Sequence record: OR339795
Source: Escherichia phage phi456
Direction: 5' to 3' (one strand)
DNA: 64,000 bases
Shown here piece after piece: positions 4,398 to 64,000 of this stretch; position 1 is the stretch's first letter; every line of letters begins with the position of its first letter. The translations under genes and the position numbers were made by a program. Under the pieces are notes generated by a model. It searched no databases, had not been told where the DNA came from, and was given only the letters and a program-made list of their open reading frames with translations.

Positions 4398-4414
4398 ATT
4401 GCTCTAATTAATTT
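4398..4414 (+). promoter_or_regulatory. C1 repressor operator-like site
   Basis: ATTGCTCTAATTAATTT, close to the P1 C1 operator consensus ATTGCTCTAATAAATTT as I recall it; sits between divergent lyz and ssb. Confidence 0.5.
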
Positions 4415-55791: not shown

Positions 55792-56067
55792 GCTGAAGGG
55801 CAGAAAAAAGGTTATCCGGACATGAGTCTCGATAAAGCATGCGGTATTTATCACGGCATGCGAATTGAGCTTAAAGAACCAAATGGTAAAGCCCCGACGA
55901 AAGAGCAGATCGCCTGGATGCGCAGGCTTAGAGAGGAAGGTTACTACGTCGTTCTTGCGTATGGTGCAGAACAAGCGATAACCGCCATCCTGGAATACAT
56001 AAGCCTTAAAAAGGGTGAGGCTATTGAGCATGTATTGAACGGCGATAAGTGGTTGTATGCTGCTTAA
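55792..56067 (+). pseudogene. VRR-NUC-domain nuclease-like protein, 5' end disrupted by IS1
   Basis: ...KKGYPDMSLDKACGIYHGMRIELKEPNGKAPTKEQIAWMRRLREEGYYVVLAYGAEQAITAILEY fits the VRR-NUC pattern; the ORF's first codons lie within the IS1 terminus. Confidence 0.45.
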
Positions 56068-56263
56068 AATAATAAATTAATTAGTGCATATGTGCTCTTT
56101 GATATAGCGCACATTAACATCGGGAGAATAATCGTGTCATTCAAGGCTAATTATGAATCGCTGGCATCGATCATGCCGCGTAATGAACAGGAAGCAGATG
56201 CTGTAGTGGACCCGGTAATCGCTGAAATGAATGCTCGCCTGGAGGCTGAATTTGCAGCTGAGA

Positions 56264-56893
56264 ATGAACATACCACCCAGGGCGACTAGGACTGTTTTTT
56301 GTGTCGGTAGCGGTCCGTCACTCACTCGTGAGGACTGTGCTGCTATAGAAAAAACTGGCTGTTCAATCATCGCGGTTAACAATTCCTGGCAGATGTTCGA
56401 TGACATTTATGCCTTATACGCCGGTGATTTGTCATGGTGGAAGCAATACGGATCCACCATACCGGGAGGGAGATTCCGCAAAGTGACAGCCAACCTGGCG
56501 GCGGCGAAATCATTTTCGTTGGAGTACAGGCGATATTGTGGACCGGCGGAAGGGGTAAATAGCGGCGCGCAGGCTATCAGTCTGGCTGCTGAATCAGGGG
56601 CTGAAGTAGTGGTATTAGTCGGCTATGACTGTTCTCTGCAAAACGGCCTTCATTGGCATGGCGCGCACCCTCAAGCCCTACGGAATCCAACGCAGGTGTC
56701 TATTTCAAAATGGCAACAGCAGTTCCTGGATACCCGCAAAAAACACGCAGATTTACATATTTTGAATGCAAGTAGGAGCAGTGCAATTCAATGTTTCCCA
56801 AGAATAAATTTAGAGGCAGTGATCGCGTTATTATCGTCGGCAGTGGCCCAAGCGCCGCAAACTTTGTTGCGCCGCGCGGAGTGCCGATTATAG
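56264..56893 (+). CDS. GSGPS-motif Rossmann-like protein, paralog 1 (MptE/Maf-like fold suspected)
   Basis: VFCVGSGPSLTREDCAAIEKTGCSIIAVNNSW...; likely start at Met 56264; 3' end overlaps paralog 2 by 103 bp. Confidence 0.4.
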   Translation: MNIPPRATRTVFCVGSGPSLTREDCAAIEKTGCSIIAVNNSWQMFDDIYALYAGDLSWWKQYGSTIPGGRFRKVTANLAAAKSFSLEYRRYCGPAEGVNSGAQAISLAAESGAEVVVLVGYDCSLQNGLHWHGAHPQALRNPTQVSISKWQQQFLDTRKKHADLHILNASRSSAIQCFPRINLEAVIALLSSAVAQAPQTLLRRAECRL

Positions 56894-57417
56894 CGGTCAA
56901 TGGGGCCATCGACTGGCTGAACCGCGCTTCTTATTTTTTCACACTTGATCCATCGCCAGACAATATGCGGCGCGTTGGTCGTGGCCGCCGTCGCCGTGGT
57001 GTTTGTTATTGCATGGCACTACCCGATGTTAAAGAACGTGAAGTCAGAGACGGCGTTCTGTGCTTCCGTCGTGTGGCTGAACGTGGCATGGAGCCAAAAA
57101 ATACGAATTCTCCCGAGTGGTGGGCGTGGCGCTGGTCCGCACATTTCGGACTTTGCGAAGATGAGAATGAAATTGCCAGCGGCAATAGTGCATATGGCGC
57201 TCTGAACCTGGCTTTCCATATCGGATTCAAACATGTCGCCCTGGTGGGCGTTGACGCTACACAAGAACCACGCGTTCACTCCGGCGGCACGCCAAAAAAT
57301 CTAAGTCACCTGCCTTTGTTATTCCAGTCTGCGCGTGAACGGATTGACGTTGTTTCATGCGGGAAAATGGGAGGTATTCCGCAGATGACTCTTAAAGAAT
57401 GGCTGAAGAATACATGA
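56791..57417 (+). CDS. GSGPS-motif Rossmann-like protein, paralog 2
   Basis: [30 protein letters not shown]...; the same motif layout as paralog 1. Confidence 0.4.
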
Positions 57418-58091
57418 TGGCACCAACAATTTATCACCGTATCGACGGTACCAAATACAGGAATATCTGGGTTGTTGGTGATCTGCATGGTTGCTACACC
57501 AGACTGATGTCCGAACTCCATCGTGTGGATTTTGACCCGGCGCAGGATTTACTGATATCGGTCGGCGACCTTATCGATCGCGGTACTGAAAATGTCGAAT
57601 GTCTGGAACTATTGCAGATGCCCTGGTTCAGGGCAGTAATGGGGAACCATGAGCGGTTGATGCTCGATGCGTTAAGTCCTGATGGCAACGTGAATAACTG
57701 GCTAATGAATGGCGGACAATGGTTCTTCATGCTGGACACTGATCAGGAAATATTAGCCAGGGCGCTGGTGGAGTTGGTAAGACGACTGCCCTATATCATT
57801 GAGTTGAACACCGGGCAAGAAACTATCGTTATAGCCCATGCCGACTATCCGGATAATGAATATCAATTCGGTAAGGAGGTGCCGCTTTTCAACGTTGTCT
57901 GGGCGCGCGAGCGTATCAGTGATTCGATGGATGATATTGGTGGCGAAATTTCGGGCGCAGATCGTTTTATCTTTGGTCACACTCCGGTGAAAAGCCCGAA
58001 GACATTCTGGAATCAGCATTATATCGACACTGGTGCCGTATTTTGCGGAAACCTGACATTGATGAAAGTGAAAGGTGATGGTGCAGCATGA
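57399..58091 (+). CDS. PPP-family Ser/Thr protein phosphatase (lambda-phosphatase/PrpA-like)
   Basis: Motifs GDLHG, GDLIDRG, GNHE present in order. Confidence 0.8.
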
Positions 58092-58741
58092 AGATTGCTT
58101 TAGTTCTTCGCTCTGGTGGCGACTATAACGCTTCCGATGTGCAGTGGCTGGTTAATCAACTGCCAAAAGGCTATGAAATTATTTGCCTGACAGACCTGAA
58201 GCGTTTACATGTACCTGGCGTCAAAGTTATCCCATTGATCAACCAGTGGCAAAAGTGCCGTGGCTGGTGGGCGAAAATCGAGTTGTTCCGACCGGATATA
58301 ACCGATGATCTGTTCTATCTGGATTTGGACACGGTTATTGCCGGTGATATACGCCCAATCCTTGAGAATCCACCAACCAGCTTCACCATGCTTAGGGATT
58401 TTTACCATCCACAATATCGTGGTAGCGGTGCCCTGCGGATACCAAATAGTGTAAAAGCGCATATCTGGAGTTCATTCTGGCAAGATCCGGAAGGTTGGAT
58501 TTCTCGTTGTGTCACTACTGAGTGCTGGGGTGATCAGGGGTTCTTACGGAAGGTTATGGGCGATGATACACCAGCATTTCAGGATCTGTATCCAGGATGG
58601 TTTGTAAGTTACAAGGCCGATGTTGTGGAACCTGGTTCAAAATATGCGAGCGCGCGTTACTCCAGGGGGAATGGGGCATTACCAAAGGACTGCCGAATAA
58701 TTTTTTTCCACGGCAAACCGCGACCTCGCGAAGTGTCATAG
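58088..58741 (+). CDS. hypothetical protein with DXD motif (possible nucleotide-sugar transferase)
   Basis: 217 aa; [12 protein letters not shown]; translationally coupled to the phosphatase gene. Confidence 0.3.
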
Positions 58742-58790
58742 GATTGGCTTCCCCTTACCAGCTCGTTTTTTGAGCAAGAATCAGAATAAT

Positions 58791-58856
58791 ATTGCTCTAA
58801 TAATTCCATGTTTTTAAAACGCGATGTACACTCATCACGTTTTTTATTAGAGCAAT
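58791..58856. promoter_or_regulatory. pair of inverted C1 operator-like sites
   Basis: ATTGCTCTAATAATTCC (58791-58807) and inverted TTATTAGAGCAAT (58844-58856), flanking a putative promoter for the downstream operon. Confidence 0.5.
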
Positions 58857-58870
58857 CCATAAGGTGCACT

Positions 58871-59089
58871 ATGTGGCCATTCCGACGGAAATATCACTAC
58901 TGGCTGATCGCCTTTGTTACGCCGACCGGCGGTATCAGGCATGTCATTACCAGGTATCGCAACAAGAGACTCACCTTAGCCAGAATTTTACAGGCTGCCA
59001 TAGGTGAGGGACTGGATACAAATTGCGTAGTCCTTCCACCTTCATACTTAGGAAAAATGACCGAAGCACAAGCTAATACGGAACTTTGA
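58871..59089 (+). CDS. small basic protein, first gene of the C1-operator-associated operon
   Basis: 72 aa from Met 58871 (RBS AAGGTG); stop 1 nt before the next ATG. Confidence 0.3.
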   Translation: MWPFRRKYHYWLIAFVTPTGGIRHVITRYRNKRLTLARILQAAIGEGLDTNCVVLPPSYLGKMTEAQANTEL

Positions 59090-59090
59090 A

Positions 59091-60353
59091 ATGAGCACTT
59101 CAGCACAAAACCAATCAATCGAAAATGTATCTATCCCTGACGTCCTGAATGCCGGTATCCCGGCCATTATCCAGAACATCCGGGCCGCGCAACGCCGCGT
59201 TAGTTGTGATGACCTCACAGCGCGTTTTTTTGATAATGCGGTTCAGTCAGCGGAGATGCTTCACGCACAGCTTATTGATGTTTATAACGCAGAAGCTGAT
59301 AGCCATAACTCCCTGGTAGATGCAGCTGAAAATATGCAGTTGGATCTTGGTCTGAAGGGTAAAGAAATTGAAGAGCTTCAGCTGCAAATTGAACATTTGA
59401 AACGCCAGCAACAGGACGCGATCGACGATGCGACGCATGACGCCAACCAGCGTGCTGATAATGCCGAACGTATAAGCATTGAGCTGGAAACAAAACTCAA
59501 TGAAATGACCGCGATGGTTGAACTGCGGAACTCACAGATTTCAACGCTAAAATCTCAATATAAAGAGATCATGAAACTTGATCCTTTTAACCTTGAGAAA
59601 CGCTATAACAAAGCTAAAAGCGAGCGACAGGAACTGCGTAAGCAGGTCGCCGACCTTAACCAACAGTTCAAAAAAACTATTAAAGATGCAAGCGAAGCGC
59701 GCGTGGCATTTGCTAATAAAAAAGCAGAGGTTACCGCGCTGGTTAATGAGAATGCCAAATTTGCGACGCTCAAGAAGGAAATGTATGGCATTACTGAGCG
59801 CCGTTTCCCTGCAAGCAAACTTCATCCGACGTTAGGGCAAATCTCCTTCTTCCCGCGCCTCCTGGCTTATGGGATCTCATCGCCTAAAGAGTTCAATAAC
59901 GAGCGTCCTTATATCGTTTCTAAGCTGGACTTTGCTTATCAGTTCTGCTGCGACATGGGCTATGCCATTGATATCCGAATCAACGAATGGTTGATGCCAA
60001 ACTTCCAGCCGTTGGCCATTTTCCGCGAGTTCCAGCCGGAAGGTTGGGTAGAGTTCTTCCATGAATTGATCTGTAAAGAGATGGAAAGCCGCCGCCCGGA
60101 ATTGGTCCGTCGAGTTGAGTGGGCGCAAGAGGTTATGTTGGCAGATGCAGAGCTGCCGTTCGAACCGGAATTCATTGATGATCTGGCAACTAAAGGGTTG
60201 CATACCCTGTTTGATGTGGTTACCCGCCGTCATGAGCAGTTGGTTGTCGAATTGGGTTTAGAGGAAACAGCGGCAAGAAGACTTCTCGATGTTTGCTATG
60301 CACGTAGCGATGCATGGGAAAAAGAGAACGGCGGCACTATTTACGTCCGCTGA
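59091..60353 (+). CDS. hypothetical protein, N-terminal coiled coil plus C-terminal globular domain
   Basis: 420 aa; residues about 40-240 heptad-rich (ELQLQIEHLKRQQQDAIDD...). Confidence 0.4.
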   Translation: MSTSAQNQSIENVSIPDVLNAGIPAIIQNIRAAQRRVSCDDLTARFFDNAVQSAEMLHAQLIDVYNAEADSHNSLVDAAENMQLDLGLKGKEIEELQLQIEHLKRQQQDAIDDATHDANQRADNAERISIELETKLNEMTAMVELRNSQISTLKSQYKEIMKLDPFNLEKRYNKAKSERQELRKQVADLNQQFKKTIKDASEARVAFANKKAEVTALVNENAKFATLKKEMYGITERRFPASKLHPTLGQISFFPRLLAYGISSPKEFNNERPYIVSKLDFAYQFCCDMGYAIDIRINEWLMPNFQPLAIFREFQPEGWVEFFHELICKEMESRRPELVRRVEWAQEVMLADAELPFEPEFIDDLATKGLHTLFDVVTRRHEQLVVELGLEETAARRLLDVCYARSDAWEKENGGTIYVR

Positions 60354-60425
60354 TAGTTACAGTGTCACTTTTAATGCTGGTGGAGTGCGCCCACCAGCAT
60401 TTTTTTCGTCCAATGAGGAGGGCAT

Positions 60426-60932
60426 TTGAGTATTTTCAATAAACACGCACACCAGGAACGTCCGTACATCGTCATAGTAGATATTGATGGAACGATATCA
60501 GAGGCAACGGAAGACAGGCTGCATTTACTTCCACCACCTGGCAAAGGTGCATTAACAGAGCACTGGAACGAGTTTAACCTTGCCTGTGACACTGATGCTC
60601 CCATCACTCCAGTTATTGATATGGTGCGCCAGTTGTCCAGCATTTACACGCTCTGGTTTGTAACCGGGCGCTGTGAGATAGCCAGGGATAAAACACGAGC
60701 TTGGTTGCGTAAGCACGTAACAAACGGGGCTGAGCCTTTGCTATCTATGCGTCCTGCCACCGATGACAGAAATGACGGCCCAGCAAAGATTGATCTCCTT
60801 AAGAAAATTGGTATAAGCAAAATTGCGTTCGCGCTGGAAGATAAGATTGAAGTGGCGCATGTTTTCAGGAGGCACGGCGTGCTTACGTTAATGGTCAGGG
60901 AGTATGAAAATGCGCTTCTTCATCAACAATAA
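60426..60932 (+). CDS. HAD-superfamily phosphatase-like protein
   Basis: 168 aa; motif I VIVDIDGT (DxDGT), later FVTGR and K...D elements. Confidence 0.5.
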   Translation: MSIFNKHAHQERPYIVIVDIDGTISEATEDRLHLLPPPGKGALTEHWNEFNLACDTDAPITPVIDMVRQLSSIYTLWFVTGRCEIARDKTRAWLRKHVTNGAEPLLSMRPATDDRNDGPAKIDLLKKIGISKIAFALEDKIEVAHVFRRHGVLTLMVREYENALLHQQ

Positions 60933-60947
60933 TTGCTCTAATAAACC
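60931..60947 (+). promoter_or_regulatory. C1 operator-like site
   Basis: AATTGCTCTAATAAACC, overlapping the stop of the HAD-like gene and upstream of the small peptide ORF. Confidence 0.5.
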
Positions 60948-61030
60948 ATGATTTTTAAAAAAGAGAAAGTGAAAATAAAAACATGCCGCAAGGCGCGGCA
61001 TGTATCCAATCAATCACAGGAGCTGAAAAT

Positions 61031-61117
61031 ATGAACACGGCATTCAAAATCATTATGGCCGCGATCTATTTCTGGCTGTTCTCTATCACTTTTGGCGGCA
61101 TCGTCGCGCATGGGTAA
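61031..61117 (+). CDS. 28-aa hydrophobic peptide (candidate small membrane toxin or leader peptide)
   Basis: MNTAFKIIMAAIYFWLFSITFGGIVAHG; strong RBS AGGAG 9 nt upstream; structured leader CATGCCGCAAGGCGCGGCATG; not in the ORF track (under 60 aa). Confidence 0.35.
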   Translation: MNTAFKIIMAAIYFWLFSITFGGIVAHG

Positions 61118-61196
61118 GGGGAGTATATTAGCCATTTGAAACCCCACGGTCTCTTGCGGGTTTAATTAAGAACCCGCAAGAAAAACACGAATTGGG

Positions 61197-64000
61197 CTAT
61201 ATTTTTCCGCCTACGCCTTTAAACTTCTCAATAAACGAGACGATTTTCTGGAAAACTGCCTGTTTTTTCGTTTTATATTGCGGATTCAACGGACTAAGTT
61301 TTGGTAATGTTTCGTTTAATTCTGTGCCATTTTCTGTGGCATATTCGCGTTTTAAAGACGTGCGAATATAGCGTTTTGCTGCATCTTCATTGAGATTTTC
61401 TTCTTTTATCAATGCTTCTGCTTCACGTTGCTGTTCGCGTTGAGCAAACGTAAAGAATGCGTCAATGATGCTGGCTTTGTCCGGTAAATCATCCAGGTTC
61501 GTTTGCTGAATAAAATCGACCACCAGGCCCTCTTTAGCACGGTTCCCTAAGCTTGAACGAATTAAGCGTTTAACCTCTTCGATCATTTCGCCCTTGCCTT
61601 TATTTTGTCTGTTGTGTTCGAAAATCAGTCCAAGGATATAATCCAGGTTTATTTCCTGAGACTTCAGCAAATCGACCTCAAAAACTACGTCATCCCAGTC
61701 AGTGGTTGATTTCTCTTTTTTCTCAGCTTCTTTCTCACGGCGCTGCCAGTCGCGAATATCGTTATAGGCAGAACGATAATCCTGAATCTTGCGATCAGCA
61801 GGGAGACGAATTGTTTGCAATTCAGCGAGCTTTTCATCATCCACATAATGTTCTGCTTTGAATTTTTCTACTGCAACAGGATCGCTAAGATCGATTTGTT
61901 GCAGGGCTTTCAGCGTGGCAAATTCATCATAGTTTTGCAGGATGTTCTCGGCACGCAGGTATTCACCAAACAGTTTAACGAAGTCTTTCTTCTCTTTTTC
62001 ACTTTCAATACTGGCAGGGTCAGGGAACCGTTGTTCCAGTTCTGAAACTACTGCCATAAAGCCGCGCTTAGCTTCACCAGTGGCAGCATCAGTAAAGCCT
62101 TCCATATACTCTGCATAACTCTTTTCTAAAACCACATTTTTGGTGTTTTTGTCACCAAACAGCGTTATGGCAGCAATAGTTGAGCGTTCCAGATCCCGGA
62201 AAGTGACGATATTACCGAAGGTTTTAGTTGCATCATAAATACGGTTGGTGCGGGAAAATGCCTGCATCAAGCCGTGAAAACGCAGGTTTTTATCGACGAA
62301 TAGCGTGTTCAATGTTGGAGCATCGAAGCCAGTTAAAAACATCCCCACGACAATTAACAGATCGATATCCTGATTTTTAACCCGTTGGGCTAAATCGCGA
62401 TAGTAGTTCTGAAAACCGTTACCGTCGGTGCTGAAGTTAGTTTTAAAATAGCTGTTATACTCACGAATTGCAGCGTCAAGAAACTCTTTAGCACTGCTGT
62501 CCATTGCGCTGGTATCAAAAGTTTCATCGGAAATTTCACCAATGGCATTTTGTTCTTCATTGGCAGCAAAGGAGAAGATTGTCGCAACACGCAGCGGTTT
62601 ATAGGTAGCCGATTTATTAGCTGCTTCCTCTTGTAACCGTTTAAACGCCGCGTAATAGGCTTTTGCAGCATCCACGCTGCTCACTGCCAACATAGCATTA
62701 AAACCTTTTGAGCCAGGGAAGGTGCGGTGGGTTTTCTGGCGGAAATTATTCAGAATATATTGCGTGATTTCCTGTATACGCATGGGATGAAGAAACGCCT
62801 GCTGATTTTCAGCCGCACTTAGTTTTTTCTCGTCAGTTTCTGTCTCTAAAGACTTAAACTGTGGCCGCACATCGTTGTAGTCCACCTTGAATTTGAGCAC
62901 TTTTTCATCACGAATCGCATCGGTAATTACATACGAATGCAATTCACGACCAAATACGCTGGCGGTCGTTTCTGAGCCTAAGGCATTTTCCGGGAAAATA
63001 GGGGTGCCGGTAAAACCAAACTGATAATAGCGTTTGAATTTCTTCTTCAGGTTTTTCTGCGCTTCTCCAAACTGGCTGCGGTGACATTCATCAAATATAA
63101 ACACCACTTGCTGATTGTATACAGGCAGGTCGCTTTCTACTTTCATCAGGTTATTGAGTTTCTGAATAGTAGTGACGATAATTTTGTTATCCTCCTTATC
63201 CAGATTTCGTTTAAGGCCTGCGGTATTTTCCGAGCCGTTGACGCTGTCTGGCGAAAAACGCTGATATTCCTTCATGGTCTGGTAATCGAGGTCTTTCCTG
63301 TCGACCACAAAGAAGACTTTATCAATAAAGTCCAGCTCTGTTGCCAGACGCGCGGCTTTAAAGCTGGTGAGGGTTTTACCAGAACCGGTAGTGTGCCAGA
63401 TATACCCACCGCTTTCCGGTTTTGACCAGTTCTTCGCTGTAAAGGAACTCTTAATTTTCCACAGAATGCGCTCGGTGGCGGCAATCTGGTACGGTCGCAT
63501 CACCAGTAGCGTCTGACTACTGTCAAAAACGCTGTAGTTCACCAGAACATTCAGCAGAGTATGTTTCTGGAAAAAGGTAGCGGTAAAGTCTTTGAGGTCT
63601 TTAATCAGCGTGTTGTCTGATTTCGCCCAATTCATGGTGAAGTCAAAACTGTTTTTATCGCGCTTTGTCGTGTTGGCAAAATAACGGGTATCGGTGCCGT
63701 TAGAAATGACAAACAGTTGCAGATACTTAAACAGGGAATTTTCGCTGTTAAAACTCTCTTTACTGTAACGATGTATCTGGTTGAAAGCCTCACGAATCGC
63801 CACCCCGCGTTTTTTTAGTTCGATTTGCACCAGCGGTAAACCATTAACCAGGATCGTGACGTCATAACGGTTAGCATGAGAACCCGTCTGTTCAAACTGC
63901 TGGATAATCTGCACCTTATTGCGCATGAGATTCTTTTTATCTATCAAATAGATGTTCTCAAGTCGCCCGTCGTCAAAAATAAAGTCGCAGATATAGTCGA
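61197..64000 (-). CDS. hsdR: type I restriction enzyme R subunit HsdR (N-terminus beyond window end)
   Basis: Frame open to 64000; N-terminal nuclease-type motif [19 protein letters not shown]; helicase motifs [24 protein letters not shown]. Confidence 0.85.

Follow-up and report, generated by a model that had tools for sequence, protein, structure and literature searches.

A predicted C1-controlled pmgR-pmgS-pap block in Escherichia phage phi456 and its relation to phage P1

What is encoded behind the inverted repressor operators near one end of the Escherichia phage phi456 sequence, and is it new? The segment lies at positions 58791-60947 of a 64,000-nucleotide stretch of record OR339795 (the window) and carries sites resembling operators of the C1 repressor, together with genes for a small basic protein, a coiled-coil protein and a HAD phosphatase, which an initial annotation made from the sequence alone described as three unassigned genes. 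The segment is very probably the already annotated, C1-controlled pmgR-pmgS-pap block of a P1-type phage-plasmid (Punavirus), which is the best explanation overall. The three genes do have names in public records, being pmgR, pmgS and pap in P1 and shtA, shtB and pap in P7. The arrangement is an ordinary and already known one, its description is a re-discovery of an annotated P1 unit, and the operon as first described adds nothing to P1 biology that the P1 reference genome does not already hold. Three other results matter more. Two propagated database labels are unsupported, namely 'PmgS-like head morphogenesis' for PmgS and '3'-phosphatase, 5'-polynucleotide kinase' for Pap. PmgS is placed in a large family tied to early operons of temperate phages, directly beside recombination genes in several lineages. 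A disagreement between a published pmgR deletion and a published CRISPR interference (CRISPRi) knockdown could be explained by antagonism between PmgR and PmgS, an idea which is genetically testable.

Positions 58700-61000 of the window are 98% identical to positions 82061-84361 of the P1 record AF234172. In a megablast search of phage records, 18 records spanned all 2301 bases at 97-98.4% identity, all of them from P1, P7 or P1-like phages; the P1 records were 98.0-98.4% identical, with pmgR, pmgS and pap lying beneath the match. Positions 82152-84309 of AF234172 hold base-for-base counterparts of the operator OpmgRa (formerly Op86a), the promoter PpmgR, the operator OpmgRb (formerly Op86b), pmgR, pmgS, pap and the operator OpmgT (formerly Op88), and P7 has the same layout, as Op(sht), shtA, shtB and pap. 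At the protein level, PmgR is 100% identical to its P1 and P7 counterparts (ShtA in P7), PmgS is 98% identical to P1 PmgS (main P1-type cluster) and Pap is about 95% identical to P1 Pap. Features, order and flanks are those of P1, from which the window differs in this block by point changes only. The P1 record describes a 'monovalent C1-controlled operator OpmgRa ... controls expression of pmgR and pmgS', which bears out the initial description of a repressor-controlled early unit that is not a standard structural or replication module. In a survey of 77 P1-like phage-plasmids, pmgR and pmgS were among 21 extremely conserved genes, and the region from pmgT on, directly past pap, was one of eight hypervariable regions. 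The record closest to window positions 56000-64000, at 99.9% identity, is plasmid pHFQ1 (NZ_AP023428.1; locus L003).

Repressor control is indicated by the operators themselves. The window holds three exact copies of the 13-mer ATTGCTCTAATAA, at 58791-58803 (+), 58844-58856 (-) and 60932-60944 (+). With up to two mismatches it gives eight matches. Dinucleotide shuffles gave 1.9 +/- 1.4, and eight was not attained in any of 100. Two of the five near-matches were checked: that at 4398 is Op21, located before ssb, and that at 29541 precedes kilA. Both are repressor-controlled loci in P1, and the motif occurrences are therefore real operators rather than chance matches. All three exact sites carry the 13-nt core of the 17-bp asymmetric P1-type operator consensus ATTGCTCTAATAAATTT with zero mismatches. 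OpmgRa (ATTGCTCTAATAATTCC; 58791-58807, + strand) overlaps the predicted -35 element and is identical to the sites annotated as protein_bind 'phage repressor C1' in AF234172 and P7. OpmgRb (58840-58856, - strand) is inverted relative to OpmgRa and is also identical in P1 and P7, and OpmgT (60932-60948, + strand), annotated in P1, begins on the last base of the pap stop codon. The initial annotation had described two inverted C1 operator-like sites around a promoter, and this layout, with a third operator at the end of the unit, holds at each position, with sites identical to the annotated P1 and P7 operators and with a promoter that is itself a prediction.

The centres of Op86a and Op86b lie about 49 bp apart, and the stretch from OpmgRa to OpmgRb, spacer included, differs from P1 and P7 at two positions (58810 and 58822), both operators being identical. 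C1 binding at this pair is predicted from its identity with the P1 sites. The inverted operator-like pair between pmgQ and pmgR is retained in three related loci, L010, L011 and L012, in which PmgS is 53-71% identical. In L010, both arms carry the same change, from GCTC to GTTC, as expected if a diverged repressor co-evolves with its sites. OpmgT appears to control the next transcription unit and not pmgR-pmgS-pap.

The promoter PpmgR (58792-58820, + strand) is a predicted sigma-70 promoter carried over from the P1 annotation, with a -35 element TTGCTC at 58792-58797 and a -10 element TAAAAC at 58815-58820. An alternative -10 element, TACACT at 58827-58832, lies within the loop of a central palindrome, AAAACGCGATG-TACACT-CATCACGTTTT followed by a T-run (58816-58845, no strand assigned), which has no annotation in the P1 record. 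A better sigma-70 match places the -10 element in the palindrome loop in L010 and L012. Either candidate promoter is flanked or overlapped by both operators. No mapped transcription start for PpmgR was found in the P1 literature, and the published P1 transcriptome data held nothing usable on the timing of pmgR, pmgS or pap.

Folding of the palindrome is conserved, with an energy of -9.5 kcal/mol in the window (z = -4.7) and -13.4 kcal/mol in P1 (z = -5.9). Across five sequences from four lineages, 94.5% of cells were paired, compared with 36-67% in slid controls, and 5 of the 11 pairs were changed on both sides. The palindrome is found at 4117-4146 in L001 and at about 3725-3755 in L010, L011 and L012. 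It could insulate the upstream pmgN-pmgQ operon in the manner of a terminator, or equally be a symmetric site bound by a protein, two options that covariation in a DNA palindrome cannot separate. Transcripts starting at a promoter inside the palindrome could not, on the predicted folding, form the full hairpin. LexA and DnaA boxes were considered for this site and set aside, as no resemblance was seen by eye.

These features suggest how the unit might work. In a lysogen, C1 bound to the two inverted 17-bp operators Op86a and Op86b, which overlap and flank a weak sigma-70 promoter, would keep the unit silent. Inactivation of C1 would let the promoter fire, giving a bicistronic, translationally coupled pmgR-pmgS message that would mostly end at a strong intrinsic terminator. 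Only read-through would reach pap, and Op88, at the pap stop codon, would serve the next operon.

The terminator-like hairpin (60373-60408, + strand) consists of 11 bp, 6 of them G-C, followed by TTTTTTT, with a folding energy of -18.1 kcal/mol (z = -3.0), and it occupies the 72-nt gap between pmgS and pap. About 17 nt separate the end of the T-run from the pap start codon, too few to hold a separate pap promoter, so that pap would be transcribed by read-through only. The hairpin is identical in P1 and is kept in L010 (PmgS 71% identical) with a compensatory pair that changes CTGGTGG/CCACCAG to CTGATGG/CCATCAG. The pmgR stop codon and the pmgS ATG are separated by a single nucleotide. The three genes had been described as all translationally close, which holds for pmgR and pmgS but not for pap, which lies behind the terminator and is absent in some relatives. 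In L010, pap directly follows pmgS, and in L012 an additional 101-amino-acid gene stands ahead of it; L011 lacks pap and has an operator-like site immediately after pmgS, and pap is missing as well from L004 and L025, which are more distant. From this distribution, the conserved unit appears to be pmgR-pmgS, with pap as optional cargo at the edge of the hypervariable region.

The first gene, pmgR (58871, ATG, to 59089, + strand), has the Shine-Dalgarno sequence AAGGTG and encodes a basic protein of 72 amino acids (isoelectric point, pI, 10.1). Homologues of PmgR are confined to P1-like elements of about 90-97 kb and three more distant phage contigs, in which the PmgR-like gene is always directly upstream of a PmgS-like gene. 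A PmgR-like open reading frame (ORF) of 72-77 amino acids stands immediately before the PmgS-like gene in L010, L011, L012, L004 and L025. A P1 knockout library identified five new essential genes, pmgR among them (PMC9024508). In that study, the in-frame pmgR deletion gave no infectious virions, with unjoined tails and incomplete heads, and was complemented in trans; HHpred found no relatives of PmgR, and the protein was undetected in virions. PmgR is probably a small basic factor for head completion or DNA filling, and not necessarily a part of the virion. A dCas12a CRISPRi screen gave efficiencies of plating (EOP) of 0.94 for pmgR, 1.2 for pmgS and 0.77 for pap and scored all three as nonessential (PMC10695390). 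Its authors listed pmgR among five essential genes missed by the screen, the others being mat, repL, 25 and 26, and the dCas12a roadblocks are polar on downstream genes (PMC10695390).

The second gene, pmgS (59091-60353, + strand), encodes an acidic protein of 420 amino acids (pI 5.2) with long predicted helices. In the full-length model, an N-terminal helical region and long coiled coil (residues ~15-232; 59133-59786, + strand), with helices at residues 15-35, 42-160 and 166-232, precede a mixed domain. This part comprises a central alpha/beta domain (residues ~233-350; 59787-60140, + strand) and a C-terminal (HhH)2 domain (residues ~351-412; 60141-60326, + strand), the latter indicated by both model and profile. 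A separate model of residues 225-420, built with 56 family sequences, was confident (predicted local distance difference test, pLDDT, 92.4; predicted template modelling score, pTM, 0.87). The C-terminus has two helix-hairpin-helix motifs in a five-helix domain, as is required of an (HhH)2 domain. The family profile matched the RAD51 N-terminal domain (4e-8) and the RNA polymerase alpha C-terminal domain (7e-7), and Pfam RNA_pol_A_CTD and HHH_5 were each found in 10 of 32 family members. Foldseek comparison of the full-length model with the PDB matched the C-terminal (HhH)2 domain alone, with weak E-values. The central domain had no structural match in the PDB or BFVD, and a fold search of the confident C-terminal half against the BFVD viral structures returned nothing useful. 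A single-sequence search of PDB sequences gave only coiled-coil noise, and matches of PmgS to NCBIfam and PADLOC models reflect mere similarity to SMC-like coiled coils and were rejected as evidence of membership.

The (HhH)2 domain of PmgS resembles the RAD51/RadA N-terminal domain, the RNA polymerase alpha C-terminal domain and the acidic repeats of NusA, and differs from all of these systems in being joined to a coiled coil of 230 residues and a central domain that has no match. (HhH)2 proteins bind the DNA backbone with Gly-hydrophobic-Gly hairpins. Distant family members carry the canonical hairpin KGIGxKTA, compared with a degenerate ELGLEE in P1-type PmgS, in which the domain is acidic (pI 4.6). 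With its degenerate glycine hairpins and acidic character, the P1 version is nearer to the protein-binding NusA repeats than to the DNA-binding versions. PmgS is probably a dimeric coiled-coil adaptor, the acidic (HhH)2 end of which would bind DNA-processing or transcription proteins, or DNA.

An exhaustive profile search recovered 118 clusters of PmgS family members at 50% identity, most of them 360-470 amino acids long and of the same architecture. In 15 prophage and viral loci of other lineages, the PmgS-like gene lies in an early operon beside repressor, recombination, methylase or integrase genes, and in none of these loci outside the P1 relatives is it among structural genes. In Aeromonas prophages, the order is helix-turn-helix repressors, DUF3799, RecT, a 362-amino-acid protein, PmgS-like, Dam and RdgC, with an integrase further along. 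Serratia, Brenneria, Yersinia and Pectobacterium prophages have RecT, a YqaJ exonuclease and then PmgS-like; Pfam matches verified both of these genes in Serratia and YqaJ in Brenneria, where an excisionase-like ORF and an integrase lie past the PmgS-like gene. In a Citrobacter prophage, a Rv2179c-like 3'-5' exonuclease is located two genes upstream of the PmgS-like gene. Three viral contigs have a CI-like repressor, followed directly or after two unknown genes by PmgS-like and then by a methylase-like gene, repressor and methylase being recognised by motif reading only, and in L022 a C5 cytosine methylase lies upstream of the PmgS-like gene.

From these neighbourhoods, the PmgS family appears to be a widespread accessory of early operons in temperate phages and often neighbours genes for recombination or methylation. 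This placement agrees with the C1 control of P1 pmgS. Because its relatives sit by RecT and YqaJ or DNA methylase genes, PmgS probably acts early on phage DNA metabolism. There is a likeness to early (pL-type) operons of the lambda exo-bet-gam type, in that PmgS relatives lie downstream of the repressor and hold the slot behind either RecT with a YqaJ-type exonuclease or DUF3799-RecT. The analogy is positional only, as no sequence or fold similarity was found between PmgS and known members of pL-type recombination operons.

The database label tells a different story. All four of the distant PmgS members that were scanned fell in PHROG 1660, 'PmgS-like head morphogenesis'. Deletions of pmgS and pap have been made and neither gene counted as one of the five essential ones; the main text of the same paper, on the P1 virion proteome, nowhere names pmgS (PMC9024508). 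The literature thus gives no requirement for PmgS in virion assembly, and its gene does not lie in a late or structural module: the pmgR-pmgS unit has a C1-controlled early promoter, with no late promoter annotated within it in the P1 record. The label 'head morphogenesis' for PmgS looks wrong, and PmgS is probably not a morphogenetic protein.

The third gene, pap (60426, TTG, to 60932, + strand), has the Shine-Dalgarno sequence GAGGAGG and encodes a protein of 168 amino acids containing D19-I-D21-G-T23, which is predicted to be a stand-alone HAD phosphatase of the T4 Pnkp 3'-phosphatase type. Pap matches Pfam HAD_PNKP (PF25109) with E = 1.2e-11 and 45.4 bits, against a gathering cutoff of 27.6. 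It also matches PHROG 415 and 505, 'polynucleotide kinase', the latter only through positions 156-292 of 295, which form the C-terminal half. A profile of five Pap homologues found Pnkp1 (4xrp, 6e-6) and the T4 Pnkp phosphatase domain (5uj0, 3.7e-5; 1ltq residues 183-292, 2e-4). Invariant among the five are D19, D21, T23, T80-G81-R82, D113, R115, D117, K121 and E138-D139, which align with the motifs of T4 Pnkp and Pnkp1. Pap thus shares DxDGT, (S/T)GR, D-x-R-x-D-x-x-x-K and the acidic pair with T4 Pnkp (1ltq, 5uj0) and bacterial Pnkp1 (4xrp), and differs from T4 Pnkp in consisting of the phosphatase domain alone and in having E-D rather than D-D as its final acidic pair. An N-terminal P-loop 5'-kinase domain was sought in Pap and not found, the protein being only 168 amino acids long and matching only the C-terminal part of the profiles, and no gene for a partner RNA ligase was seen nearby. 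The missing kinase domain makes the record label '5'-polynucleotide kinase' wrong. Pap is best described, by sequence comparison, as a stand-alone Pnkp-type phosphatase that probably removes 3'-phosphates from nucleic-acid ends (end healing).

The initial description of a small basic protein, a coiled-coil protein and a HAD phosphatase with DxDGT is confirmed by the ORFs, the PmgS model and the Pfam HAD_PNKP match. The remote homology searches and structure prediction it had proposed gave a Pnkp-type phosphatase for Pap and an (HhH)2 C-terminus for PmgS, with the central domain unmatched. It had also held that annotation of the three proteins as known P1 housekeeping functions would speak against its view; the genes do carry names and have been characterised in part, but what PmgS and Pap do is still a matter of inference.

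The C-termini of PmgS-like proteins suggested a further possibility. In a survey of PmgS-family proteins P0041-P0253 and loci L008, L009, L013-L020, L022 and L023, 29 of 72 full-length family representatives and all 109 Aeromonas members ended in Ala-Ala, compared with about 0.8% expected by chance. Among the loci compared, PmgS-like proteins with an upstream PmgR-like ORF never end in this way (the P1 group, L010, L011, L012, L004, L025 and L024, the last with a weak PmgR-like ORF). Those without PmgR do so in five groups (Aeromonas, Enterobacterales, L018, L022 and L023), but not in the L005-L007 group. The pattern also occurs within one PmgS subfamily, in which L022 and L023 lack PmgR and end in Ala-Ala, and L024, with its weak PmgR-like ORF, does not. 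In E. coli, ssrA-like ClpXP degrons require a terminal Ala-Ala, although this alone does not suffice (PMC10862746), and the tail of PmgS-family proteins may be such a degron.

It is possible on these grounds, although unlikely, that PmgR and PmgS are antagonists: unlimited PmgS would harm late development, co-translated PmgR would restrain or direct it, and elsewhere ClpXP would degrade PmgS through the Ala-Ala tail. The pmgR deletion would then be lethal through unrestrained PmgS and not because PmgR builds virions. Consistent with this are the order of a small basic pmgR followed, 1 nt on, by a larger coupled pmgS, and the lethality of the in-frame pmgR deletion while pmgS is not among the essential genes (PMC9024508). 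The pmgR roadblock, at an EOP of 0.94, was harmless, and since roadblocks are polar pmgS should drop too (PMC10695390). A lethal clean deletion together with a harmless polar roadblock suggests that restraint or direction of PmgS may be all that PmgR is needed for. The idea also draws on the upstream PmgR-like ORF in P1-like loci, L004, L025 and, weakly, L024, none of whose PmgS proteins end in Ala-Ala, on the Ala-Ala tails in most loci without PmgR (the L005-L007 group excepted), at frequencies far above expectation, and on the requirement of ssrA-like ClpXP degrons for Ala-Ala (PMC10862746). However, the CRISPRi screen also missed mat, repL, 25 and 26, and weak knockdown is the simpler explanation of its result. 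The residues before the Ala-Ala are polar or acidic (KEAA, SEAA), and many such tags are weak (PMC10862746); the lineages counted are few and not wholly independent of one another, and no PmgS toxicity has been reported in the literature. A broader proposal is similarly doubtful, namely that PmgS is the P1 member of an uncharacterised early temperate-phage family which acts on recombination or replication intermediates or on host machinery handling them and is limited by an Ala-Ala degron or by PmgR, the lethality of the pmgR deletion being due to unrestrained PmgS and the head label being a propagated error. Quite improbable is an anti-defence or host-takeover cassette, as the initial annotation had suggested, in which Pap would heal nuclease-damaged ends and PmgS would block a host defence or nuclease. 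The unit is early and C1-controlled, pap is variably present and borders the hypervariable cargo region, and Pap falls in the T4 Pnkp phosphatase clade. T4 Pnkp repairs tRNA that the PrrC anticodon nuclease has cleaved. PmgS relatives lie in early operons by recombination genes, a region in which other phages encode inhibitors of host nucleases. Both pmgS and pap are dispensable on laboratory hosts (PMC9024508, PMC10695390), yet the nonessential knockouts showed no change in antirestriction: 24 other single P1 knockouts had no plaquing defect and unchanged antirestriction activity (PMC9024508). Pap also lacks the kinase domain and a nearby RNA ligase gene. Among PADLOC defence models, the PmgS coiled coil matched only the SMC-like arms of LmuB and JetC, and these weakly (E = 6e-5 to 1e-2), and PmgR and Pap matched none; PmgR, moreover, is required for virion production. 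The anti-defence suggestion thus finds no direct support. The narrower idea that Pap counters a PrrC-type anticodon nuclease implied by the neighbouring type I hsd cassette was rejected, as the cassette of the near-identical pHFQ1 is hsdR-hsdS-hsdM with no extra gene.

Very unlikely, finally, is a morphogenetic role for all three proteins, as the records would have it: P1 gives a 'putative morphogenetic function', P7 'sheath structure/contraction', and PHROGs and RefSeq 'PmgS-like head morphogenesis'. Apart from these labels, this reading has in its favour the tails and incomplete heads of the pmgR deletion (PMC9024508). Against it, pmgS is outside the five essential genes and unmentioned in the virion proteome main text (PMC9024508), transcription of the unit is assigned to an early promoter under C1 control with no late promoter annotated, the distant relatives of PmgS are found in prophage regions that are early, recombination-related or close to immunity genes and not in structural modules, and Pap is of the nucleic-acid-end phosphatase type. 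The preferred reading, of a C1-controlled P1 block with an early PmgS adaptor and an end-healing Pap, has several points standing against it. PpmgR matches the sigma-70 consensus weakly, at 7 of 12 positions (TTGCTC, 17 nt, TAAAAC), and was not called by a consensus scan. The c1 gene lies outside the window, about 5.8 kb past its end in pHFQ1. Neither pmgS nor pap has a known phenotype. The degenerate hairpins and acidic domain of P1 PmgS argue against direct DNA binding, and its vicinity to recombination genes in other phages may reflect only a general clustering of early-operon accessory genes. The pmgR deletion phenotype looks morphogenetic and the P7 annotators assigned sheath functions, and a structural or chaperone role for PmgR is fully possible.

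Upstream of the block, pmgQ (58088-58789) carries a GAG to TAG change at 58739 that removes its last 16 codons, giving 217 amino acids compared with 233 for the full-length genes of P1 and pHFQ1. PmgQ matches a PHROG glycosyltransferase family. In the upstream block 56791-58741, PmgP weakly resembles MptE-like and sialyltransferase families, and ppp encodes a calcineurin-type phosphoesterase, which the P1 record gives as 64% identical to the lambda Ser/Thr phosphatase. From these similarities, the upstream 'putative morphogenetic' genes do not look structural, and the 'pmg' label for the block appears to be historical.

Downstream of Op88, P1 has pmgT-pmgU-pmgV, whereas the window has a type I restriction-modification cassette read from the opposite strand. 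The restriction enzyme gene hsdR (61197-64000, - strand) runs past the window end, and in pHFQ1 it is followed by hsdS, hsdM and then phd-doc and c1, the cassette standing in place of P1 pmgT to humD. The P1 record AF234172 notes flanks homologous to sequences adjoining the EcoDXXI and R124/3 hsd loci, which indicates that the hsd cassette arrangement was already known. Plasmid pHFQ1 is a 121-kb IncHI1B plasmid in which the P1-like segment is interrupted by IS1 copies and fused to cellulose-synthesis genes and a group II intron. The segment there appears to be a remnant within a composite plasmid rather than an intact prophage.

The first ORF past Op88 encodes a hydrophobic peptide of 28 amino acids, MNTAFKIIMAAIYFWLFSITFGGIVAHG (61031-61117, + strand), with the Shine-Dalgarno sequence GGAG. 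It has no more than one base changed relative to P1 and P7, is unannotated in AF234172 and appears in a 44-amino-acid version annotated by PGAP in pHFQ1. Homology between the window and P1 stops a few bases past its stop codon, which places the swap of cargo (the hsd cassette in the window, pmgT-pmgV in P1) exactly at that point. A terminator-like hairpin with a T-run on the minus strand (60981-61003) lies between Op88 and this ORF, about 190 nt past the hsdR stop codon. From its position, hsdR transcripts would cross the 28-amino-acid ORF in antisense orientation before terminating.

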